NCBI GenBank assembly: GCA_963921275.4
Contig: OZ001293.3
Span: 4,864,001-4,928,000, forward strand
Direction of reading: 5' to 3'
Length of the DNA: 64,000 bases
Origin: an uncultured Hormoscilla sp.
GTDB lineage: Bacteria; Cyanobacteriota; Cyanobacteriia; Cyanobacteriales; Desertifilaceae
Position 1 is the first letter of the stretch, and every line of letters starts with the position of its first letter. Below are positions 2,710 to 44,198 of this stretch, in pieces. The position numbers were made by a program, and so were the translations under genes. Under the pieces are notes generated by a model that was given only the letters and a program-made list of their open reading frames with translations, made no database searches and was not told the DNA's origin.

Positions 2710-4500
2710 ATGATCGGCAGTTTTATTAACCCAGTAATAACTAAAGCATCGGCATTAGGTGTCAGCTTGTTTGAAGAGACAGACACGATCGAGTTGTGGC
2801 AGTCCAGTTCAGAAGCAGAAGTGGAGACGGTGATTCGGGCAGTATACAGGCAAGTGTTGGGGAATGCTCATGTGATGGAGAGCGAGAGGTTAACCATCCC
2901 GGAATCCCATCTGCGCTCGGGGGAAATAAGCGTCAGAGATTTTGTGCGGGAAGTGGCGCTATCGGAAATGTATCGCTCCCGGTTTTACGACAACTGTCCC
3001 CGCTACCGCTCGATCGAGTTAAATTTCAAGCATTTGCTGGGTCGGGCCCCGGAAAGCTATGAGGAGATGTGCACTCATAGCAACATTTGGGATCGAGGCG
3101 GTTGGCAGGCAGAGATAGATTCCTATGTAGATAGTGAGGAATATCACGAGGCATTTGGGGAAAACAGAGTGCCGTTTTACCGGGGTTATAAAACCCAGAC
3201 AGGCAAGCGGGTAGTTGGGTTTACCCATATATTCCAACTCTTGCGCGGTGCTTCTAGCAGCGATAAATCCAGTTTTGTGGGGACAAGGTCAAGGCTAAAT
3301 CGGGCGATCGTCACCAATAATCCCAGCGTGATGATTCCCCTTTCATCCTCCTATGGGCGACCGACTGATGTCAATAAACTACTAGCTGATGTCCTAAAGC
3401 TGAAGCAACCAGCAATCGCGCCACCAACAAGTCGGCCAAAAATCCTATCAGCGGAGGTAGAAATAGCTCAATCCTGGCAAGGTCAATATCAATCATGGGA
3501 AGATCCAGAGCCAGTAGAGCTATGGCCAGGCCGATCGGAAACGGAAGTAGAAACGGTGATTCGGGCGGTATACAGGCAAGTTTTGGGGAATGCCCACGTG
3601 ATGGAGAGTGAACGACTCACAGTCCCGGAATCACAGATAAAACTTGGGGAAATCAGCGTCCGTGAATTTGTCCGTCAGGTGGCCAAATCGGAGTTGTACA
3701 GGTCGCGGTTCTTCGACAACTGCCCCCGCTACCGGGCGATCGAGTTAAATTTCAAGCATCTGCTGGGTCGTGCCCCTGATGACTACTCGGAGACTTTCTA
3801 TCACAGTAGCGTGCTGGATGCAGGCGGTTTTGAGGCGGAGATAGACTCTTATATCGATAGCGACGAGTACCAGGAAGCTTTTGGGGAAAACGTAGTACCG
3901 TTTTACCGAGGCTACAAAACCCAGACTGGCAAAAGGCTGCTTGGGTTTACCAACATGTTCCAACTATTGCCCAGCGTTTCGACTAGCGATAAAGCGGGTT
4001 TATCAGGAAATCTACCTCGGCTGAATCGGGCCCTGATTTACAATCATCCTACAGGCAAAGCCCCTGTCACGGATATCAATGCCTTGCTGGCTGAGGTGCT
4101 CAAGCCGAAGATCCAGCCCCAAGAAATTATCTCCAAAGCAGAACTGGCTCGCAAGCAAGCCTATCAAGCTTTGCAAAGCCAGTGTTCCGAACAAGAAACT
4201 GTGATTGCGACTTTACAACAACAGTTGGCAGAATTACGGGCAACTGCTACCATCGGAGCAGCCCAATTAAATAAGTGGCAGTCTTATAGCCCTTACTCCA
4301 ATGGCGGCACTGGTTTGACCATAGGCCGACAACCGACGGCAACCGCCGCCCTACCAGAAAGTTATGAGGCTTTGCAACAGCAGTATGCAGTAGGGGAAGA
4401 GACGATCGCCTCTTTACGGGAGCAAATCTCAGACCAGCAGCGCTTGGCCGCGATCGGATCGGCGCGATTGAATAAATGGCGCACCCGTTCTTTTTCCTAG
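2710..4500 (+). CDS. Phycobilisome rod linker with two tandem PBS-linker domains and a coiled-coil tail (CpeC/MpeD-like)
   Basis: Two copies of ETVIRAVYRQVLGNAHVMESERLT...ELNFKHLLGRAP; tail has two IGxAxLNKW repeats. Confidence 0.85.
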   Translation: MIGSFINPVITKASALGVSLFEETDTIELWQSSSEAEVETVIRAVYRQVLGNAHVMESERLTIPESHLRSGEISVRDFVREVALSEMYRSRFYDNCPRYRSIELNFKHLLGRAPESYEEMCTHSNIWDRGGWQAEIDSYVDSEEYHEAFGENRVPFYRGYKTQTGKRVVGFTHIFQLLRGASSSDKSSFVGTRSRLNRAIVTNNPSVMIPLSSSYGRPTDVNKLLADVLKLKQPAIAPPTSRPKILSAEVEIAQSWQGQYQSWEDPEPVELWPGRSETEVETVIRAVYRQVLGNAHVMESERLTVPESQIKLGEISVREFVRQVAKSELYRSRFFDNCPRYRAIELNFKHLLGRAPDDYSETFYHSSVLDAGGFEAEIDSYIDSDEYQEAFGENVVPFYRGYKTQTGKRLLGFTNMFQLLPSVSTSDKAGLSGNLPRLNRALIYNHPTGKAPVTDINALLAEVLKPKIQPQEIISKAELARKQAYQALQSQCSEQETVIATLQQQLAELRATATIGAAQLNKWQSYSPYSNGGTGLTIGRQPTATAALPESYEALQQQYAVGEETIASLREQISDQQRLAAIGSARLNKWRTRSFS

Positions 4501-4720: not shown

Positions 4721-5554
<834 letters not shown>

Positions 5555-5655
5555 AGGAGTAGAAGACAGATGTAAGGGGAAAAGCAGAAAGGGACTTGTA
5601 GCAAGGGCTTAGATAGGGTATACTAAAAAAAATAACAGAATTAGAGGTGGAGTTA

Positions 5656-8508
5656 ATGGCAAAGAAAAGCCGTGGAGTTCCGGCGTTATATTCAGAGATA
5701 AAGGTCAAGCTGGGGATTTCAATGACGCCCACAGGCAGAAAGTTGCTGACTAAGATGGCCGAAAAGGCGGATTTATCCCGCTCGGAAATGGTAGAGCAGA
5801 TCGCAAGAGGGTGTATCTCGATCGAGAGTGCCTCGGCAAAAATGGCGATAATGCTAAAGGAGGCGGTGGAAAATCAAGCTCTAACAGATGCAGAAATAGA
5901 ACAGCTGAGCACGAAGTTTCAGGTGGTCGATAGTGAATTGTCCAGTCCAGTGGAGGATGAGACAGGGTCTGAGGTGCAGTTAGAAAGTTCTCAAGCACAA
6001 GCACAGTTGATTGTAGATTTACAACAACAGATAAAGGAGTTGGAAGCAGCTCTAGCAACTAAGAACGAGGAGATGGTGCCGTTAGAAAATTATGAATCAT
6101 TGCGGCAAGAGTCGGCAGCACAAGCAACTCAGATAGAGGAGTTAGAAACAAAGCTAGCAGAATGGTCCGATCGGGTGCCGCGCTCAGAATATGAAACATT
6201 GCAGCAGGATTCGGCAGCGCAAGCAAGTCAGATAGAAGAGTTGCACTCCAGGATAGAGAAATTGTCGTCTCGGGTACCGCACTCAGAATATGAGTCATTG
6301 CAGGAGTCGTCAGCAGCATTATCAGAGGAGATCGCCTCCTTGAAAGCACAGCTTCAGGCATCTGAGGAGATAATGGCCAGTCAGAAAGAGCGGACAGTGC
6401 CGTTAGAGGAATATGAGTCATTGCAGCAGGACTCGGCAGCACAAGCAAGTCAGATAGAAGAGTTACACTCCAGGATAGAGGAATTGTCATCTCGGGTGCC
6501 AGTCTCAGAATATGAGTCATTGCAGGAGTCGTTAGCAGCATTATCAGAGGAGATCGCCTCCCTGAAAGCACAGCTTCAGGCATCCGAGGAGATGATGGCC
6601 TCTCAGAAAGAGCGGACAGTGCCGTTAGAGGAATATGAGTCATTGCAGCAGGACTCGGAAGCACAAGGGGAGGAGATAGCAGCATTAAAAGCACAGATAG
6701 GCCAGTTGGAAAAGAATGTGCCAGTCTCAGAATATGAGTCATTGCAGCAGGACTCGGCAGCGCAAGCAAGTCAGATAGAAGAGTTGCACTCCAGGATAGA
6801 GGAATTGTCGTCTCGGGTACCGCACTCAGAATATGAGTCATTGCAGGAGTCGTCAGCAGCATTATCAGAGGAGATCGCCTCCTTGAAAGCACAGCTTCAG
6901 GCATCTGAGGAGATAATGGCCAGTCAGAAAGAGCGGACAGTGCCGTTAGAGGAATATGAGTCATTGCAGCAGGACTCGGCAGCACAAGCAAGTCAGATAG
7001 AAGAGTTACACTCCAGGATAGAGGAATTGTCATCTCGGGTGCCAGTCTCAGAATATGAGTCATTGCAGGAGTCGTTAGCAGCATTATCAGAGGAGATCGC
7101 CTCCCTGAAAGCACAGCTTCAGGCATCCGAGGAGATGATGGCCTCTCAGAAAGAGCGGACAGTGCCGTTAGAGGAATATGAGTCATTGCAGCAGGACTCG
7201 GAAGCACAAGGGGAGGAGATAGCAGCATTAAAAGCACAGATAGGCCAGTTGGAAAAGAATGTGCCAGTCTCAGAATATGAGTCATTGCAGGAGTCGTCAG
7301 CAGCACTATCAGAGGAGATCGCCTCCTTGAAAGCACAGCTTCAGGCATCTGAGGAGATAATGGCCAGTCAGAAAGAGCGGACAGTGCCGTTAGAGGAATA
7401 TGAGTCATTGCAGCAGGACTCGGCAGCACAAGCAAGTCAGATAGAAGAGTTGCACTCCAGGATAGAGGAATTGTCATCTCGGGTGCCAGTCTCAGAATAT
7501 GAGTCATTGCAGGAGTCGTCAGCAGCACTATCAGAGGAGATCGCCTCCCTGAAAGCACAGCTTCAGGCATCCGAGGAGATGATGGCCTCTCAGAAAGAGC
7601 GGACAGTGCCGTTAGAGGAATATGAGTCATTGCAGCAGGACTCCGCAGCACAAGCAAAGGTGGTAGCTTCCTTAGAACAACAGATAACGGAGTTGCAACA
7701 TCGGGTGCCATTAGAGCAATATGAATCAGTGCGGCAGGACTCGGCAGCACAAGCAAAGGTGGTGGCAGAGTTACAACAACAGCTGAGTGAGTTGCAAGAA
7801 CATAGTATGGAAACAGAGAATGGGGAGACTGTGTCGTTACAGAGATATGAATCAGTCCGGCAAGAGTCGGAAGCAAAAGCAAAGGTGGTGGCCTCCTTAC
7901 AAAAGCAGATTAAGGAGTTGCTGCAAGAGCGCGTGCCGTTATCTACATATGAACATGTGCGACAAAAAGTTGCAGAACAAGCAACTCAGATCGCCCGATT
8001 AGAAAAAAAGATTAGTCAATATCGGGTGCCCTTAAACAATTATGAAGCGTTGCACCAGGAGTCCCGATCGCAAGCAAGTCAGATGGCCCAGTTACAACAA
8101 CAGATCCGCGAGCTGCAAGGACGGGTGCCATTAGAAAAATATGAAAGTTTGCGGCAACAGTCAGAACAAAAAGAACGGGCGATCGCCGCAATGCAACAAC
8201 AGATTCGGTTATTGTCAGATCGGGTGCCCAAAGAAGAATATGAATCTTTGTGGCAGTCTACCGTTCCGGAAAAATCGGAAAAACAAGCCAAGGTGGTGGC
8301 GCAACTGCAACAACAGCTTAACGGTTTGCAAGGTAATACAACTCAGACCAATGGAAATGGGCCGTTAGAGAGTTACGCATCTTTGCTACAGCAGTCTCAA
8401 GAACAGGCAAAGTTGATTGCCACCCTACAGCAAAAAGTTGCCGAGTTGCAGTCAACTTCCAGAATTGGAGAAGCTCATTTAAATAAGTGGCGTCAGCGCA
8501 ATTTTTAG
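5656..8508 (+). CDS. RHH/CopG-family DNA-binding domain fused to a long tandem-repeat coiled coil
   Basis: N-terminal GVPALYSEIK...MTPTGRKLL...LSRSEMVEQIARG is RHH-like; about 20 VP(L/V)xxYESLQQ repeats follow. Confidence 0.75.
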   Translation: MAKKSRGVPALYSEIKVKLGISMTPTGRKLLTKMAEKADLSRSEMVEQIARGCISIESASAKMAIMLKEAVENQALTDAEIEQLSTKFQVVDSELSSPVEDETGSEVQLESSQAQAQLIVDLQQQIKELEAALATKNEEMVPLENYESLRQESAAQATQIEELETKLAEWSDRVPRSEYETLQQDSAAQASQIEELHSRIEKLSSRVPHSEYESLQESSAALSEEIASLKAQLQASEEIMASQKERTVPLEEYESLQQDSAAQASQIEELHSRIEELSSRVPVSEYESLQESLAALSEEIASLKAQLQASEEMMASQKERTVPLEEYESLQQDSEAQGEEIAALKAQIGQLEKNVPVSEYESLQQDSAAQASQIEELHSRIEELSSRVPHSEYESLQESSAALSEEIASLKAQLQASEEIMASQKERTVPLEEYESLQQDSAAQASQIEELHSRIEELSSRVPVSEYESLQESLAALSEEIASLKAQLQASEEMMASQKERTVPLEEYESLQQDSEAQGEEIAALKAQIGQLEKNVPVSEYESLQESSAALSEEIASLKAQLQASEEIMASQKERTVPLEEYESLQQDSAAQASQIEELHSRIEELSSRVPVSEYESLQESSAALSEEIASLKAQLQASEEMMASQKERTVPLEEYESLQQDSAAQAKVVASLEQQITELQHRVPLEQYESVRQDSAAQAKVVAELQQQLSELQEHSMETENGETVSLQRYESVRQESEAKAKVVASLQKQIKELLQERVPLSTYEHVRQKVAEQATQIARLEKKISQYRVPLNNYEALHQESRSQASQMAQLQQQIRELQGRVPLEKYESLRQQSEQKERAIAAMQQQIRLLSDRVPKEEYESLWQSTVPEKSEKQAKVVAQLQQQLNGLQGNTTQTNGNGPLESYASLLQQSQEQAKLIATLQQKVAELQSTSRIGEAHLNKWRQRNF
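6170..7660 (+). repeat. Coding tandem repeats including a near-perfect 543-bp duplication
   Basis: Sequence at 6241 recurs at 6784 (offset 543); units begin GTGCC...GAATATGAGTCATTGCAG. Confidence 0.9.
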
Positions 8509-8798: not shown

Positions 8799-9413
8799 CT
8801 AGCTGGATGCTTTGGATTTAAACTGGGTAACTTGCTCTAGGCGAGATAAAGCACTGGTAGCTGACTCCCGAATATAGGGGTCAGCTGCTTCATTATTGGC
8901 AAGAGGGGATAGCACTTCAGCAGCTTTAGAGTCTCCCAGGGATCCGAGGGCATTAATCACCGCGACTTGGAGAGCAATATCATCGATAGTCATTGCCTCG
9001 ACGAGAATATCCAAGGCGGGTGGACCCACAGTGCCCAGTGCGCCCACTGCGGAGATTTTTACTACTGGGTTGGGGTCTTTTAGGGCTGTTTGCAAACCCG
9101 CAAGGGCTTCTTTTGGGAAGTTCTCTTCGGGAAAATTGAGGGCGATCGCCGCCAGGGCTTTAGCGCAGCTAGCCCTGACTGTTTCATTATCACTGCTTGT
9201 CAGTTGTTCTACCAATGCAGGGACAGCATCCAAACCAATAAGACCCAAAGCTTGCACGGCTGCCCGCCGGTAGACCACATCTTCATCCGACAAAATTCCC
9301 ATCAGTTGAGGAATAGTATCGGCAGTCCTTTCGGAGGCAATTTGGCGCATTGCTCTTTCTCGCAGTCTCGGATTCTTATGTTTGAGTTGTTGATACAAAT
9401 CTTCTGCGGTCAT
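8799..9413 (-). CDS. cpeZ: HEAT-repeat bilin attachment protein CpeZ-like
   Basis: E/F-type HEAT repeats (DEDVVYRRAAVQALG, VRASCAKALA, DPNPVV) in a PE cluster. Confidence 0.75.
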   Translation of the reverse strand: MTAEDLYQQLKHKNPRLRERAMRQIASERTADTIPQLMGILSDEDVVYRRAAVQALGLIGLDAVPALVEQLTSSDNETVRASCAKALAAIALNFPEENFPKEALAGLQTALKDPNPVVKISAVGALGTVGPPALDILVEAMTIDDIALQVAVINALGSLGDSKAAEVLSPLANNEAADPYIRESATSALSRLEQVTQFKSKASS

Positions 9414-9949
9414 ATTATTCTGAGGTAATTTGTGAATTTATCGTTCCAGAGTCATCGAAAACTCGCAAGAACTCCAGAGATTCGAGCGGGGAAGACAACC
9501 AGATTGTCAGCATTAGCGACTTTGGCTGAGGGAACCCAATCGCGCTTCTACCTGTTGCATGCTGTATACCACTTCTCCAATATTCTGCGTCGGAGCCAAC
9601 TGACCTTGGGCATTCATAAAACGCTAAGATGCCATGAGTTCCATTAGGGGTCGAGCTGGGAATCGCTTCCCAACCCTCCCTTTCGAACCGTGCATGCGGT
9701 TTTCATCGCACACGGCTACTGGTTAGTTGGACCTTGTCATTGGCAGGATTACTGGGGATTGCTCCCTTTGTCCCTCTTCTTATGCAGTTTTTCCCCTTTA
9801 TGGTAGTCGATAGGACTGTTTCGTATCTAGCTCCGGAAGGTTCGCGGGGGGTATCCAGGAAACCACTTATACCGCTCTTTGCTAACATTGCCCCTGTCTC
9901 GTCATTAGGGGACTTTTCAAGTTTTACCCGGCTAGAGTTTTAGTCCATA

Positions 9950-10961
9950 ACTCAAGTTGCGACCTATAAAAATTGGATACAAAAAGCTATGATAAAGAGA
10001 ATTATTTTCAACTCTAATCCCTTAGATGTAACAGCATGAATTGACTTGGGAAACAAATTTGTGATTCGACTAAAACAGGTTTCAACTTGTTTTCTTGTTA
10101 CTTTTTGTATATATTCAAAACAAGAATATTCTTTTCTTTTTGAGTTCTTTTTTCGCAAAGGTTTTAACATTATACTTGACGACTCTTTTAGTAAATCCTC
10201 TAATTGATAATCATTATAAGCTTTATCTCCATAAACTATTGAATTTGATGGTAAGTCAAAGCCAAAAGATTGCAAAACTTTAAAATCATTATAACTACCA
10301 GGATCTAGATAAAATTCTATTGGCTTTCCATTTTTGTTTACCAACATATGAACTCTTAATCCATAAAAATAACGTTTTTTACTGGCAATATACCCTCGAT
10401 ATTCTTCCTTGTTATAAATTTGGCATCTATCAATCCTAATATTATCACATACTGGCACCGGGAAACTATCAAGAATATATTCTTGACCCGGATTGAGCTC
10501 TTTAAATGTTTGAGCTATAACTTGGAAGAAAAACATCCAAATTGGTTCCTCAATATTGTGTAATCGACGATTGAACCTACTTTTACTTAACAGATTTTTT
10601 ATATACTTGTGTTGGACCATAAATTGACAAGAGCGATCGTGGTGTCCTCCGAAAAAATATGCAGCAACTAATCCGACTGTCATCACTTCGGCATTGTTCA
10701 TTTTTACTTGTGGATCTTCTTTTATATTTAACGCTTTTAGTAGCTCGTCACAAAGAACAAAAATTGTTGTAATCATATCTTCCATCATCTACATCCCCCA
10801 GCAATTAACTATTATTTTAGTACATTATAACCTATAAACAGCCAACCCGCTGTATAGCACAAAAAAAATATAATTTTGTATCAAAAGCTACGAAATATCC
10901 CAAATATCTGTAAAGTCTAAGTGGGTAATTCATATTTTTTTTAATAGGTCGCAACTTAGGT
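9950..10961 (-). mobile_element. IS982-family element, copy 1 (1012 bp)
   Basis: TIR AC(T/C)(C/T)AAGTTGCGACCTAT; target duplication TAGTCCATA; AT-rich. Confidence 0.9.
9964..10788 (-). CDS. IS982-family DDE transposase
   Basis: ILDSFPVPVC, YFYGLRVH, YGDKAY, RKQVETCFS motifs. Confidence 0.9.
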   Translation of the reverse strand: MMEDMITTIFVLCDELLKALNIKEDPQVKMNNAEVMTVGLVAAYFFGGHHDRSCQFMVQHKYIKNLLSKSRFNRRLHNIEEPIWMFFFQVIAQTFKELNPGQEYILDSFPVPVCDNIRIDRCQIYNKEEYRGYIASKKRYFYGLRVHMLVNKNGKPIEFYLDPGSYNDFKVLQSFGFDLPSNSIVYGDKAYNDYQLEDLLKESSSIMLKPLRKKNSKRKEYSCFEYIQKVTRKQVETCFSRITNLFPKSIHAVTSKGLELKIILFIIAFCIQFL

Positions 10962-11571
10962 TAGTCCATATTACAATCTAGGATTTCTCCTGATTTTTGG
11001 TACGTATTAGGGATACTTCCACCCAAGATTTCCAACTATATCCGACCCACGTCTGCCGGTACATTCCTGCACCACTTATACAAGGAGTTACCCCTGTCCT
11101 TTGCTTCTTGGGCCATCTCTCTCCACATGGCTTACGCTTATCATCTAACTGGTCCCTATCTCCTGACCACCGGTCGATAGTCGAGTAGTTATGGACAGCA
11201 CACGTGGAGTTACTTCGTTCCCTGGTATCATTTCACGATGTTTTTAGGTCCCTGCTTTACCCCGGGAGCTACTTTGAGTGTGATGTTGGCCATATGCAAC
11301 AGCCAACACTAGCTACCATTTCCTTTTTAGGCCAGCGTGTAAGCCTTCTTCCGCTGGTTACACATAACGAGGCTTTCACAGATTCGTTTTCCTAACCATG
11401 AGCATCTTTCCTAGCGGAGTTGCCGACTTTGGGCTGTCAGCTATCCTACATTTAAGTCCTTGCTCCGCACCACGGTGATGTCACTCCGCAGCACTAAGGA
11501 CCGGTGTCACCCCCACACCTGGGGAGAGGGAATTTAACCCCCATGATGACCAGAGTTACCATATTGAGCCT

Positions 11572-12440
11572 GTGCGATTCGTTCTAGCCTAACGTGGTCA
11601 AACACGGAACGCTAGCCCGGTTTCATTAGCCGGGAACTCTGACCGCATGGGGGTTAAATTCCCCTCCCCCCAGGTACGGGGGTGACACCGGTCCTCGGTG
11701 CTACGAAGCGACATCATCGTGGTGCTAAGCGAGGACTCAAATGTAGGATAACTGGCAGCCTAAGCCGGTGACGCCGCTAGGAAAGATATCCAAGGTTAGA
11801 GCAGGCAAACATGTGCAAGCCTCGTTATAAGGAACCAGCGAAATAAGGCTATATGCGCTGGCCTAAAAAGGAAATGGTAGCTAGTATTAGTTTTAGACTC
11901 TGGCTAATATAGTACTCAAATAGCTCCCGGGGTATAGTGTGGACCTAAAGGTATCGCGAAATGTTGTTAGGGAACGAAGTAACCTCTCGTGTGCTGTCCA
12001 TCAGGACAAGTTAGATGTTAAGCGCAAGCCACGGGGGGAGGGATGGCCCAAGAAGCGAATGCCCGGGGTAATTCCTGGGATAACATCTACAGTAATGTAG
12101 ATGATGCTGGGTAGCCAGCGCTGACGTGGGTCGGTGATACTAGGAAGCTGCTGGAATGAGTAATCCTAAAAAGCCACGGAACTAATCCGAAACGCAAGTG
12201 GAGGATAAGGTATGGATAACTGGTAAAACTGACTTGAAAATGGTGATACTAACGGTTATCAGAACAACCACTCGCTAAACCAGGAAAGGGAAGAAAAGAC
12301 AGGCGGCAAGGGCTAACGGAAGTAATTCCTATTAAGTCTACCTATGAAAAGGGCCTAGTACCCAGTAGCCGGATGCGGTGAAAATCGCAAGTCCGGTTCC
12401 TCAAGGGAGGGTCGGGAAGCGATTCCCGGCTCGACCCCAT
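11572..12440 (+). ncRNA. ORF-less group II intron (inner), antisense within the outer intron
   Basis: 5' GTGCGATTCG; domain V TAGCCGGATGCGGTGAAAATCGCAAGTCCGGTTC; ends CTCGACCCCAT (end may be 12440-12442); EBS1 AGACTC versus exon GAGCCT. Confidence 0.88.
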
Positions 12441-12638
12441 CCGATTATGATTAGTTTTGGTTCTAAACATTCAGTCCAATTTTGGCTCGGCTTTTCCGTG
12501 TTTGTACAGGTTAGGCCGAAACGAGTCGCACTGCACATTTGTGTTTAGAGTTGTTTGAGCACCTGCATCAACAATGTCAATGACCGAGTTGAGTTTATAT
12601 TCGATAGACAGCAGAACTTGTGGGGACTTCGACGAAAA

Positions 12639-12760
12639 GGGTGCATCTCATATTTGCGTTGCCGCCCGAACCGTTCCCAGGCGGGAGCCAGGGAACGAGG
12701 GGTCCGGCTACAGATACAAAGCCCGCCTGCGCGGGCTAGATTGCAAACTGGGATGCACCC
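12639..12760. mobile_element. MITE, 122 bp
   Basis: TIR GGGTGCATC(T/C)CA; 8-bp target duplication GACGAAAA. Confidence 0.85.
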
Positions 12761-12932
12761 GACGAAAATCCCCTCTCTGTCTGAATCAAAGCTGACCTTA
12801 ATATCAGAGACTCGCATTGTTTTAGTCATTTTAGATCGAAAACCGCGACACTTCATTTATTATACTCTAGTGGCTGTAAAACTTGTCGCGTAAGTTGGGG
12901 TTTGCGGGCATCTACCCAACCTACGAATCTAA

Positions 12933-13526
12933 TCATTGAGTTGCTGAGGCTCTGGTACGATTGAAGGCAATCATCTCTTCTAAGTCCTTACGCCCTACAC
13001 AGCGGCGTTCCGAGCAATAGGCCATCAGGTTCACTCCATTCATCATCCTGACGCTACTGACGCGCACCCGAAAATCATCGGTGAGAAACCAGCAGCGTTC
13101 CTGACCTTGGTTTCTTTCATATTCAGTATCGATCGTCAATATCCCATCTGGGGCAAAATAGTATCGACCCACCACTGGAATGCCTTCCACATAGCCACGG
13201 TTACGCAGGAAGAACCCCGTTCGGCTATTCTCAGGATCGGGAATGTCAACCAGAATTGCGGCATAATTGGGGTTAGGTTCAGTTAAGTCTAGGTTGTCCT
13301 GCCAGCCAAAACTCGCACCACCAGCAGCTCTAGCTAGATCGACCTTTTGCTCTACGCAAATTTGCTTGACTCTGGAGTCATCCCGATCGAACACTTGAAT
13401 AATCAGATTAGATTTCCCTGATTCATCCACCATAGAGTCAAAATGATGCACAGTGCGCTCGGAAAACCAGATTCCTTCACTTTTTCTAAAGAAATCCATC
13501 ATCGTCATTGGCGGTGTTAGCAGCAT
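12933..13526 (-). CDS. cpeU: S/U-type phycobiliprotein lyase CpeU
   Basis: PPMTMMDFF, RNRGYVEG, ERCWFLTDDFRVRVSS motifs. Confidence 0.8.
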   Translation of the reverse strand: MLLTPPMTMMDFFRKSEGIWFSERTVHHFDSMVDESGKSNLIIQVFDRDDSRVKQICVEQKVDLARAAGGASFGWQDNLDLTEPNPNYAAILVDIPDPENSRTGFFLRNRGYVEGIPVVGRYYFAPDGILTIDTEYERNQGQERCWFLTDDFRVRVSSVRMMNGVNLMAYCSERRCVGRKDLEEMIAFNRTRASATQ

Positions 13527-13671: not shown

Positions 13672-14526
13672 ATGCAGTCAATGGTAAAGAGCGATCGCTC
13701 CGGGTCGAATGTAACTCCTGCCGAGATGATATCAGCCCTCAAACCAGGTGCCAATCTTGCTGGTGCTGACTTACAGAGGATGGAGCTGATGAGGATGAAT
13801 TTATCCAGTGTAGATTTTAGCAAAGCGAATCTGCTCAAAGCTAACCTGATCGCAGCTCACCTGAGTGGGGCCAACCTGTCTGAGGCGAACCTCAGGGGTG
13901 CGGATCTCAGAGGGGCCAACCTGCGCGCAGCTCACCTGAGTGGGGCCGACTTGCAAGACAGCTCCTTAAACCGGGCCCAATTGCAGCAGGCGGATCTGAC
14001 TGGTGCCAACCTGGAACTCGCCAAGCTGCAACTAGCTTACTACGATCGCGAGACAATTTGGCCAGAAGGATTTGCTTATAAAAGTTCTGGAGCAGTGGGT
14101 CCAAAAGCCAATCTACCTGGGGCTTTTCTGAACACGGCCCATCTTCGGGGAGTAGATCTGCGAGGTGCTAACCTGCGGGGTGCTTACTTGAGTGGAGCTG
14201 ATTTGACTGGAGCTAATTTAGAGGGAGCGGCATTGAGTGGGGCCAACCTCCAGAAAGCCTATCTTACAGGAGCTTGCTTGCGCTCTGCTCGATTAAATGG
14301 TGCTGAGTTGCAGTTTGCCGATCTGCGGGCTGCTGACTTGACTGGAGCCAGTTTAGAACATATACAGAGCATCGCTGGGGCTGATTTTACCCTGGCTCAA
14401 GGACTGAGTGAGTCCGATCGGGCCATGCTTTGCGCCCATCCAGGGCAAGAGTTGGGCACTTGGAATCCTTTCACTCGCAATAATACTGCCCAGAGTCTCG
14501 GCTGTTCCCCGATCGCTGACAAATGA
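13672..14526 (+). CDS. Pentapeptide-repeat protein
   Basis: Extensive A(D/N)LxG repeats. Confidence 0.9.
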   Translation: MQSMVKSDRSGSNVTPAEMISALKPGANLAGADLQRMELMRMNLSSVDFSKANLLKANLIAAHLSGANLSEANLRGADLRGANLRAAHLSGADLQDSSLNRAQLQQADLTGANLELAKLQLAYYDRETIWPEGFAYKSSGAVGPKANLPGAFLNTAHLRGVDLRGANLRGAYLSGADLTGANLEGAALSGANLQKAYLTGACLRSARLNGAELQFADLRAADLTGASLEHIQSIAGADFTLAQGLSESDRAMLCAHPGQELGTWNPFTRNNTAQSLGCSPIADK

Positions 14527-14643: not shown

Positions 14644-15210
<567 letters not shown>

Positions 15211-15223
15211 CTAGGGGGATAGA

Positions 15224-15757
<534 letters not shown>

Positions 15758-40079: not shown

Positions 40080-41125
40080 ATGACCAGCATGACTGTGAAA
40101 TCCTTCCCAGCGGAAGGAGATGGTTTTCCTTGGTGGGCAGGCAACGCTCGTCTAGCGACGCTCTCAGGGCGTTTGTTGGGCGCTCATGTCGCTCACGCCG
40201 GTTTGATAGTGCTGTGGGCGGGAGCCTACACTCTGTTTGAGCTTTCGCGCTTCAACCCAGAACTGCCCATGTACTCCCAGGGCTTAATTGTGCTGCCAAA
40301 CCTGGCAAGGTTGGGTTTTGGCGTTGGTGAGGAGGGAATAGTCAATACCTACCCCTACTTCGTCATTGGAGCTTTGCACCTGATCAGCTCTGCCTTCTTG
40401 GGTTTCGGTGGCATCTTCCATGCCCTGAAAGGACCGGAAACCCTAGAAGAGAATTTTGACTTCTTTGGCTACCGGTGGGACGACAAAGACAAAATGACCA
40501 CCATCCTGGGCATTCACCTGATTCTTCTGGGTATCGGTGCTGAACTGCTGGTGGCCAAAGCAATGTTCTTTGGCGGACTCTACGATCCGACTGTCAGTCA
40601 TGTGCGCGTCATTTCTGGCCCGACCTTGAACCCAGCCGTCATCTTTGGCTACCTATTCGGTGGGGGTGGCACAAACTGGCTAGCAGGTGTCAACAACCTC
40701 GAAGATGTTGTCGGCGGTCATATTTGGATCGGCATCCTCTGTATTGCTGGCGGCATCTGGCATATGAAAACCGAGCCTTTCCCCTGGACAGAACGCCTCT
40801 TTATTTGATCGGGAGAAGCTTATCTGTCCTACAGCATCGGCGCTCTAGCCTTAATGGCCTTTATTGCCACGTTGTTCGTATCCGTTAACGATCTGGTATT
40901 CCCAGTCGAGTTCTACGGACCAACTTTAACTATCGGCATGGATCGCTTTCCCTCTTTTGAAGGTGTAGAGTTGCTGACCTCTCGCACTTGGCTGGCCAAT
41001 GCTCACTTCTGGTTGGGTTTTTTCTTCCTGCAAGGTCATATATTCCACGCACTTCGAGCCGCTGGTTTTGACTTCCGTCAGGGCAAAGTCAGCCAAGCAG
41101 ACAGCTTGACGGAGGAGGTCGCCTG

Positions 41126-41126: not shown

Positions 41127-42946
<1,820 letters not shown>

Positions 42947-42947
42947 A

Positions 42948-44198
42948 ATGACAGCAACTGCAACTATCTCCGAACCCAAGTATGGCTGGTGGGCGGGCAA
43001 TGCCCGTTTGACCAATCTTTCGGGAAAACTTCTGGGCGCTCATGTTGCCCAAGCTGCTCTGATCGTATTTTGGGCGGGGGCGTTGACCCTATTTGAACTC
43101 TCCCAATACAACCCAGCCGAACCGATGTACTCCCAGGGTTTAATTCTGCTGCCTCATCTTGCCAGTCTCGGCATTGGCGTCGGTGATGGCGGGCAAATTG
43201 TCGATACCGCGCCTTATTTCGTTATTGGTGTTTTGCACCTAATTAGCTCAGCGGTTCTGGGTGCTGGGGGCATCTATCATGCCTTGATCGGTCCGGAAGT
43301 CTTGCCTCAAAACCATAGCTTCTCAGGCTTCTTTGGCTATGACTGGGAAGATTGGGACAAGATGACAAGCATCATTGGCATTCATCTGCTGCTGGGACTG
43401 GGGGCTTGGCTTCTGGTCGCTAAAGCTATGTTTGTTGGGGGACTCTACGACCCTAATTTAGAAGCGGTGCGAGTTATATCACAACCGACTCTCAATCCCC
43501 TACAAATTTTTGGCTATCTTGTTGGTCAAAAAGGTGCCGAAGGCATGGCTGCGGTTAACAACTTAGAAGATGTTGTTGGCGGTCATATCTATGTTGGCCT
43601 GTTGTTGATTAGTGGTGGCTTCTGGCATATCCTGACTTCGCCGAAACTGTGGGCGCAGCAGGTACTATTTTGGTCTGGTGAGGCTTACCTGTCTTACAGT
43701 CTGGGTGCTTTGGCTTATATGGGGTTTTTGGCAGCTTATTTCATCACTGTTAATGACACCGTTTACCCGACTGCTTTCTACGGTCCTCTCGGTTTCTCGA
43801 AGACGGCAGCAGGTTTTGTTACCTCGCGCACCTGGTTGGCAACGAGTCATTTTGTGCTGGCTATTCTGTTAATGTTCGGTCATATTTGGCATGCGGTGCG
43901 GGTGCGATCGCTCGCGGCAGGCTTTGATATGCGCCTGGGGCAGTTTGTCACGCAAGTACATAATTTTGATGTGACGCTTTTGTTCTTGCGGAATCTGCCC
44001 ATTTACCGCCGGGGTTTGTCACCTGTATTCAGGGGATTGGAAATTGGCATGGCTCACGGCTATTTCCTGATTGGACCTTTGGTTACTCTCAATTCTATAG
44101 AGGATCCCCAGTTGGCCAATGAAAAGGAAGAATCTTCTCGATTTAGACTCGTACTTCAGAAAAATCGGTTGCGAGTATCAACCAATCATTTGTCCTAA
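42948..44198 (+). CDS. IsiA-PsaL fusion protein, PsaL part truncated
   Basis: Full IsiA domain, then [32 protein letters not shown] (PsaL signature), then an unrelated tail. Confidence 0.8.

Follow-up and report, generated by a model that had tools for sequence, protein, structure and literature searches.

We analysed a stretch of 64,000 nucleotides from an uncultured Hormoscilla sp. (assembly GCA_963921275.4, contig OZ001293.3, positions 4,864,001 to 4,928,000; hereafter the window, numbered from its first letter), in which a pseudogene between two pigment genes holds a stack of mobile elements. A group II intron interrupts the pseudogene; this outer intron is itself interrupted by an insertion sequence (IS) of the IS982 family and by a second, inner group II intron on the opposite strand, and a short insert resembling a miniature inverted-repeat transposable element (MITE) lies elsewhere in the same pseudogene. 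The original prediction, made from the letters without database searches, had described such a nested stack at 9513..12829, and it is present at nearly these coordinates: the intron at 9643-12531, the IS982 at 9950-10961, the antisense intron, the MITE and a TAG in the host were all found. Two congeners supply the alleles used most below, G002 (locus L002) and G004 (locus L003). The locus holds the following features (aa, amino acids; nt, nucleotides; ORF, open reading frame; tnp, transposase gene):

8799..9413, minus strand: cpeZ-like HEAT-repeat gene, 204 aa, intact (PF13646, 6.2e-31; PF03130 PBS-lyase HEAT, 1.9e-13)
9415..9642, minus strand: 3' part of the RES pseudogene ('exon 2'; tblastn of the L002 RES ORF, 72-88% identity, and alignment with L002/L003)
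9643..12531, minus strand: outer ORF-less group II intron, 997 nt of its own sequence, 2889 bp with two insertions (RF00029 and intron-less alleles)
9950..10961, minus strand: IS982-family insertion sequence (tnp 9964-10788, 274 aa, intact)
11030..12146, no strand: long imperfect inverted repeat, outer domain I body (11030-11560) against inner intron (11632-12146)
11572..12442, plus strand: inner ORF-less group II intron, 871 nt, antisense to the outer, after outer nt 89 (RF00029, 44.4 bits, domains V and VI at 12364-12440)
12532..12793, minus strand: middle part of the RES pseudogene ('exon 1'), split by the MITE-like element (91% aa identity to the L002 RES ORF)
12639..12760, no strand: MITE-like insert, 122 bp (absent in L002 and L003)
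12794..12829, minus strand: putative antitoxin stub, 12-13 codons, fused to the RES remnant (alignment with the intact 106-aa gene of L003)
12933..13526, minus strand: CpeS-like phycobiliprotein lyase gene, 197 aa, intact, upstream context gene (PF09367, 5.2e-59)

Both introns were recognised by Rfam model RF00029 for domains V and VI (DV/DVI), which has a gathering score of 40. As had been anticipated, matches lie at 9643-9720 on the minus strand (42.1 bits, spanning the full model, 1-77) and at 12364-12440 on the plus strand (44.4 bits), among five in the window. On the minus strand the outer unit begins with GTGCGAC, its first G at 12531, and ends with ...CCCCTAAT, its last T at 9643; its junctions read ...AATGTGCA|GTGCGACTCG... 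at 12531 and ...GACCCCTAAT|GGAACTCATGG... at 9643. In the intron-less alleles of G002 and G004 the flanks are contiguous (...AATGTGCA|GGAACT..., AATGTGCAGGAACT), and in a contig of metagenome run X4 position 9641 is followed directly by 12531, with 2889 letters left out. Because empty alleles exist in L002, L003 and the X4 contig, the boundaries of the outer intron are exact; its 5' GUGCG, its precise ends and the lack of a target duplication at the empty site are those of a group II intron. The same alleles bear out the earlier claim that excision fuses the host frame (NTNV-Q-EL...). The genome holds ten copies of the outer family with 0-2 differences each, and the window copy, once freed of its insertions, carries the majority base at all eight variable positions of the ten-copy family. 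A loose pattern, ..aACA.. and then ..TGTA/TGCA|, is common to the 5' flanks of all ten, and most 3' flanks begin with T. When whole composites were aligned with MAFFT the insertions were misplaced, the inner and outer introns being homologous, and the junctions were set by exact-string matching instead.

For the inner intron, the start and strand had been given correctly (11572-12440, plus, 869 nt), whereas its end had been set two bases short, the true end being 12442 and the length 871 nt. Uninterrupted copies of the outer intron read CTAATCATAATC|AGGCTCAATATGG at this site; the window and a second locus carry there an identical 871-nt insert, which on the plus strand runs GTGCG...CCCCATCC and has no target duplication. 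The terminal CC is found in 138 of the 139 copies of the inner family, and read joints skip 871 letters. Group II introns usually end in ..AY; the present unit departs from this by ending in ..AUCC (CCCCATCC), and the Rfam alignment stops two bases early. An intron on the opposite strand is not spliceable from the transcript of its host intron, and with the inner on the plus strand and the outer on the minus strand, the statement that the former cannot be spliced out of the latter holds; the pair is not a functional twintron, in which both would lie on the same strand. Outer nt 101-601 are 74% identical to inner nt 61-528, and the inverted repeat between the two bodies has arms of 132, 96, 84, 65, 41, 39 and 27 nt with 78-85% complementarity over about 480 nt.

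The second passenger of the outer intron is assigned to the IS982 family by its transposase (NF033520, 3.1e-58, 197 bits, cut-off 130; also PF13612 and PF01609), its inverted ends (25 nt, 88%) and its target duplication. Outer copies that are not interrupted have GATTGTAATATGGACTAAAACTCTAGCC at the insertion site; in the window ..GGACTAA precedes the IS, and ATGGACTAA is repeated on its far side, giving a direct repeat TTAGTCCAT(A) of 9-10 bp at 9941-9949 and 10962-10970. Together IS and duplication measure 1021 bp, and read joints skip 1021 letters. There are 83 full-length copies in the genome, 62 of them with an open tnp frame; copies other than that of the window mostly show duplications of 6-8 bp. 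The element sits after outer nt 699, in a stretch that is not alignable between intron families; when the site was mapped through ORF-containing introns, the only long matches were to the nested ORF-less intron inside one of these (locus L014).

The MITE-like insert has perfect terminal inverted repeats of 9 bp (GGGTGCATC.. and ..GATGCACCC) and is flanked by an 8-bp duplication, TTTTCGTC, at 12631-12638 and 12761-12768. The X4 contig skips 12633-12764 and thus represents a MITE-less allele, and other contigs bridge both MITE junctions. In the genome the insert has 157 partial BLAST matches, three of them longer than 100 nt, and G004 holds a relative with the same ends and an 8-bp duplication; being short, non-coding, bounded by terminal inverted repeats and a target duplication, and present in multiple copies (mostly partial), it has the properties of a MITE. 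A terminator-like hairpin lies inside it at 12720-12737 on the minus strand. As a separate observation, relatives of this repeat (..CCCGAACCCTAAAGGGTCC|GGCTACA..) have been struck at least five times by the 871-nt intron at several loci of the genome.

The host of the outer intron had been taken for a dead gene of the phycoerythrin cluster. Instead it is, on sequence comparison with relatives, a RES-domain toxin pseudogene joined to the stub of a putative Xre/ParS-type antitoxin, the remains of a type II toxin-antitoxin cassette of the RES/Xre (ParT/ParS-like) kind. A homologue of the host, sought as a check of the original prediction, does exist: congener G002 has at L002 an orthologous open frame of 148 aa that matches PF08808 (3.2e-10, 40.7 bits against a cut-off of 23.2) and is named 'RES domain-containing protein' in its source, with an NCBIfam subfamily model scoring below cut-off (23.4 vs 110). 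The RES pieces of the window are 72-91% identical to it at the amino acid level, and in relatives the RES frame ends with a TAA one base ahead of the cpeZ-like ATG. In G004 an intact ORF of 106 aa lies just upstream of RES and overlaps its start; its antitoxin matches are weak and below cut-off (PF09722, E 0.0091, 16.4 vs 24.5 bits; NF049845, 0.019), and its position together with the overlap fits an antitoxin of the Xre/MbcA/ParS type.

The ATG at 12829 opens this putative antitoxin gene, whose stub, through a deletion of about 486 bp, continues in another frame into the central part of the RES gene. What had earlier been described as a frameshift is this fusion of antitoxin start to mid-toxin, and an annotation trap is thereby corrected, as the 'gene' running from ATG 12829 combines the first codons of one dead gene with an internal piece of a second. 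If the MITE is taken out together with one 8-bp repeat of its duplication, the RES frame is continuous and unshifted, two codons shorter than in G002. Further lesions emerge from the alignment with L002 and L003: both congeners have TGG where the window has the TAG at 9624-9626, the window carries a +1 indel near 9536-9542, and 5 bp are missing near 9471. The X4 contig differs from the window by one letter at 9541 and five letters at 9471. The +1 indel (GCGCGATTGGGTT vs GCGCTCAAGGTT) falls exactly at the site of the G004 MITE (L003, ~3010-3140), which has the same terminal repeats and a duplication CTCAAGGT; it is possibly the footprint of a MITE excision.

The cassette is absent from G001, of the same genus, and from G028, of another family, where the CpeS-like and cpeZ-like genes are separated by gaps of 63 and 143 bp, respectively. 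Since these genomes have the pigment genes adjacent without it, the cassette is itself an insertion. Its remains differ among the congeners: G003 retains remnants of the antitoxin only, G002 the 3' two-thirds of the toxin only, and G004 a frameshifted toxin carrying a different MITE. The earlier view of the region as an insertion sink is therefore upheld by this different MITE in the G004 stretch and by the different deletions in each of G002, G003 and G004. No intact toxin-antitoxin pair was found at the locus, either in the window or in any of four congeners, and no second copy of the RES/Xre pair was found in this genome.

What brought the inner intron into its place, and in reverse, can be read from the behaviour of its family. 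Its 139 full-length copies are 98.6-100% identical, 61 of them being identical to the window copy, and they occupy 121 distinct pairs of flanks. A logo of these 121 target sites holds information only at -15 to -9 (AACCTTA), -6 to -1 (GAGTCT) and +1 (A). Within the intron, each occurring once, lie exon-binding site 2 (EBS2), AAGGTTA at 11792-11798 (intron nt 221), and EBS1, AGACTC at 11895-11900 (nt 324), the former complementary to TAACCTT and the latter to GAGTCT of the target. Such a pairing arrangement of EBS2 and EBS1 is the one known from group II introns, and the complementarity of both to the flanks of the copies joins the DV/DVI match and the 5' GUGCG in identifying the inner unit as one. 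In the outer intron the site on the plus strand is TTACCATATTGAGCCT|G, which by our own count matches the logo at 10 of 13 positions; it is filled in two of the ten copies of the outer family (the window and C1:5732229-5734092) and empty in eight. At C1:5732229-5734092, too, Rfam places the DV matches on opposite strands.

A better site, AACCTTTACGTGTCT|G, with 12 of 13 positions matching by the same count, occurs in a family of ORF-containing introns and is filled in antisense in all eight aligned copies. These eight outer introns fall into two subfamilies that differ at many positions, and their nested inner copies differ at nine columns only, which indicates at least two independent insertions. 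Genome-wide, another intron encloses about 20 of the 139 inner copies in antisense and about 8 in sense. These counts are approximate, as introns were delimited crudely (5' motif plus DV match, with stack matching): 95 of 485 3' ends found no partner, and some few of the intervals taken as 'outer' are probably spurious. Backward insertion is possible because a target recognised by pairing between RNA and DNA can be on either strand, transcribed or not. Proteins for such mobility are encoded in the genome, which has 27 introns with ORFs of at least 450 aa; the three intron-encoded proteins (IEPs) tested are intact, with 587-593 aa and RVT_N, RVT_1, GIIM and HNH domains.

Three observations on the 871-nt intron stand beside these. 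At C1:1056960-1061052 (L017) and about nine similar loci there is a 4.09-kb composite: an ORF-containing intron has taken up an 831-nt intron, in sense and close to its 5' end, as well as the 871-nt intron, in antisense and within the IEP gene; in L017 this antisense copy cuts the IEP to 482 aa, ahead of the HNH domain, and the uninterrupted L014 encodes 593 aa with HNH. The intron also forms head-to-tail arrays of three copies at C1:5447656-5450266 and of two at C1:824936-826675, abutting as ..CCCCATCC|GTGCG.. at junctions unlike the target of the family; these probably arose by another route, e.g. template switching or recombination. Finally, the 139 copies showed no clear pattern of replication-strand bias per 0.5 Mb, the GC skew being weak and irregular, with no origin or terminus placeable.

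We favour, with a probability of about 85%, the reading that the locus is a graveyard of selfish DNA without a function of its own, in which a decaying toxin-antitoxin cassette was struck by an intron, an IS and a backward intron. An ancestor shared by part of the genus would have acquired a RES/Xre cassette between its CpeS-like and cpeZ-like genes, and the decay of the cassette would then have been lineage-specific. For the present genome, where we infer the order of events in part, a deletion of about 486 bp would have taken most of the antitoxin gene and the N-terminus of the toxin, after which the MITE would have inserted. The 997-nt intron would next have reverse-spliced into the toxin remnant, in sense orientation and at a site matching the target of its family, and the IS982 would have entered this intron. 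Last would have come the 871-nt ORF-less intron, the most active of the genome, which appears to choose its DNA by some 13 nt of RNA pairing (EBS2/EBS1/+1) and would be blind to the direction of transcription; it would lie backwards because the bottom strand of the outer intron offers the 10/13 match. Its reverse transcriptase would have to come in trans from the intact RT-maturase-HNH proteins of other introns.

After these events the outer intron would no longer splice, since it holds an unremovable 871-nt block complementary to its own 5' body in addition to a 1-kb IS; the loss would cost nothing, because four other lesions already break the host frame. With 3.4 kb between it and its former operon partner, the cpeZ-like gene would have to use read-through or promoters inside the junk, and it is presumably still expressed, as it is intact and 97-99% identical to its congeners. 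For the locus itself little is at stake beyond this pigment-assembly gene split from its partner by 3.4 kb of recent junk. The opposite-strand nest is a clean natural demonstration that a DNA target is chosen by RNA pairing regardless of later splicing.

Several points weigh against this account. In the outer family, TGCATA at the tip of a hairpin may be the EBS1, pairing with the 5' flanks, as read by eye, and an EBS2 of that family was sought and not identified. The short-read contigs enter the ends of the outer intron by 30 and 26 letters only, below the 31 letters that the bridging rule of the tool requires, and the internal junctions at the locus are taken from the genome assembly alone. 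Three sequencing runs of unknown kind cover the locus in full and two metatranscriptomes small parts of it; the runs compared with the window are contigs only, which touches the proposed loss of splicing. The IS982, by a minimum-free-energy fold and the divergence between families, would sit in the variable stretch that separates the core of domain I from domain V. No diagnostic single-nucleotide polymorphism (SNP) is shared by the window composite and that at C1:5732229-5734092, so that either independent insertion or spread of the composite may account for this pair.

These last two composites have an identical 871-nt insert at an identical position and lie at different genomic sites, which could also mean that they are copies of one another and that the outer intron with its backward passenger is a mobile unit, able to fold and splice, and to retrohome or be mobilised in trans. 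The 4.09-kb composite of the other family, found about ten times at different sites with its antisense passenger, points the same way, as do the zombie twintrons of plant mitochondria, where, in the accessible part of the report, the outer intron splices without removal of the inner (PMC7049729). Yet the filled site matches the RNA-guided target of the inner intron, so that repeated independent hits are expected, and the two composites have no SNP in common. In the other family, moreover, diverged outer introns with near-identical inner ones present the signature that Mohr et al. took for independent insertion, as described in the available portion of their article (PMC2882425). The passenger in the window also sits within domain I, some 480 nt of which are about 79% complementary to it. 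We therefore judge a mobile composite unlikely, albeit the strongest competitor of the graveyard reading.

The contigs that stop 30 and 26 letters inside the outer ends, with none of those listed spanning the internal junctions, would also be compatible with a nest created in assembly by the mis-joining of near-identical repeats (139 and 83 copies). Such an artefact seems to us the least credible of the alternatives, hardly to be entertained, as the chromosome was assembled as a single 6.88-Mb contig, the junctions are base-exact relative to uninterrupted copies (the IS has a target duplication, the intron has not), an identical inner/outer junction is seen at a second locus, whose flanks are different, and the cleaned outer copy is full-length. 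A last alternative holds that the pile-up was co-opted, an IS982 promoter or the inverted repeat of about 500 bp controlling the cpeZ-like gene through read-through or double-stranded RNA. The cpeZ-like ORF has indeed remained intact and 97-99% identical to its congeners despite the 3.4-kb separation, the IS982 tnp reads towards it, and the terminator-like hairpin of the MITE lies on its strand. Promoter-like sites are, however, not above chance (12 vs 7.8 +/- 2.6 in shuffles). All the elements, moreover, hardly differ from the consensus of their families and must be very recent, so that co-option would have had little time; we regard it as very improbable. Terminator-like sites in the scan were likewise not above chance (3 vs 4.8 +/- 2.0 in shuffles).

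The nested group II introns of the archaeon Methanosarcina acetivorans were reportedly described by Dai and Zimmerly in 2003. They are cited in the study of Thermosynechococcus elongatus by Mohr, Ghanem & Lambowitz (2010), which, in the part of the paper accessible to us, describes ORF-less TeI3 introns inside TeI4 introns (PMC2882425). The likeness to our genome is considerable, for there, too, ORF-less introns are mobilised in trans by related IEPs and enter a conserved site in other introns and also in IS elements, an IS has broken one TeI4 copy, and identical inner introns in diverged outer ones were read as independent insertions (PMC2882425). The T. elongatus inner intron, however, is described as spliceable and as placed where the intron ORF has its first two ATGs, between them, whereas here the inner intron, a member of a single family of 139 copies, has entered domain I of an outer intron that has no ORF, and being on the strand opposite to it cannot be spliced from its transcript. 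In Trichodesmium, likewise a cyanobacterium with much non-coding DNA, an intron-in-intron forms a group II twintron that, according to the accessible text, is spliced sequentially (Pfreundt & Hess 2015, PMC4649490); the present one cannot be, and its host gene is dead. The 'zombie' twintrons of plant mitochondria (Zumkeller, Gerke & Knoop 2020, PMC7049729) share with ours an unspliced inner intron, dead cargo in the outer, and among them one intron has entered a copy of itself; in the portion available, their inner introns lie in domain IV and the outer ones still splice, whereas our cargo lies backwards in domain I and the splicing of the outer is judged from sequence. The terms 'antisense' and 'opposite orientation' do not occur in the accessible text of the T. 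elongatus paper (PMC2882425), nor 'antisense' and 'opposite' in that of the zombie twintron paper (PMC7049729). Nothing relevant to a backward intron-in-intron turned up in the literature searched, which is no proof of its being unpublished. Intron-in-intron, IS-in-intron and trans-mobilised ORF-less introns are thus already known, and opposite-strand nesting is unusual and mechanically unsurprising.

The locus is ordinary decay, and the genome-wide intron load is the notable part. With a profile built from the five matches of the window and iterated once, we counted 485 near-full-length DV/DVI matches in the 7.03-Mb genome, all on the chromosome (the one 6.88-Mb contig). Infernal, which scored 150 of 867 first-look candidates, listed 151 matches; two of the 150 displayed fall short of the cut-off. 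The introns fall into 125 families at 90% identity, the largest with 149 and 77 members, and most are 800-1000 nt long and ORF-less. For comparison, Arthrospira platensis, likewise a cyanobacterium with a large group II expansion that includes ORF-less introns, has 101, the maximum among 1,790 representative bacterial genomes in the accessible part of Miura et al. 2022 (PMC8919778); the ~485 introns here are nearly five times as many, a rough comparison given that the methods differ. No more intron-dense bacterial genome was found in the literature searched on intron proliferation, nor did the library searched contain a paper that links the relatives' genus name to group II introns. Among 15 genomes searched, the 871-nt family in its present form occurs in this one only, its nearest copies (91-92% identical) being in G004. 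Related introns are many in three of the four congeners and were found in neither of two other genera of the family searched. The spread of the 871-nt intron looks recent, because its copies are up to 100% identical to each other and the nearest congener copies only 91-92%. It is conceivable, and we advance it tentatively, with rather less than even confidence, that the locus is one scar of an ongoing intron invasion, the genome with its ~485 introns and their recent spread being a natural model for unchecked proliferation, in which composites are maybe still mobile. A genome so rich in introns is relevant to the question of what normally restrains their proliferation, and to intron-spread models for early eukaryotes. 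The proteins of the relatives are named in their source as coming from sponge-associated cyanobacterial metagenome-assembled genomes.

As to the flanking genes, which are now 3.4 kb apart in the window, the names cpeU and cpeZ of the original prediction are labels only; the classes supported are a CpeS-like lyase (PF09367) and a HEAT-repeat protein. The CpeS-like gene matched no NCBIfam model, and the members of its cluster are named 'phycobiliprotein lyase' in their source. For the HEAT protein, the context gene downstream of the pile-up, NblB was the best NCBIfam match at 60.6 bits against a cut-off of 300, no model exceeding its cut-off, and its cluster members are named 'HEAT repeat domain-containing protein'; it is 97-99% identical to the copies of congeners. 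On the opposite strand, between phycoerythrin-type alpha and beta genes (14644-15757) and the CpeS-like gene, lies a pentapeptide-repeat gene (13672-14526, plus, 284 aa), which is kept at that place in the relatives searched. On the other side of the locus, an ORF of 953 aa (5647-8508, plus) is highly repetitive, rich in glutamate and glutamine and coiled-coil-like, with sub-threshold or marginal Pfam matches; it starts about 90 bp past a group II DV/DVI match at 5476-5553 (region 5476-8508, plus). Farther along the window, three matches to IsrR, the isiA antisense RNA, lie on the minus strand at 40476-40653, 42359-42536 and 43344-43518, with a group II DV/DVI match at 41413-41489 among them, which suggests tandem isiA-like genes, one of them neighboured or interrupted by an intron.

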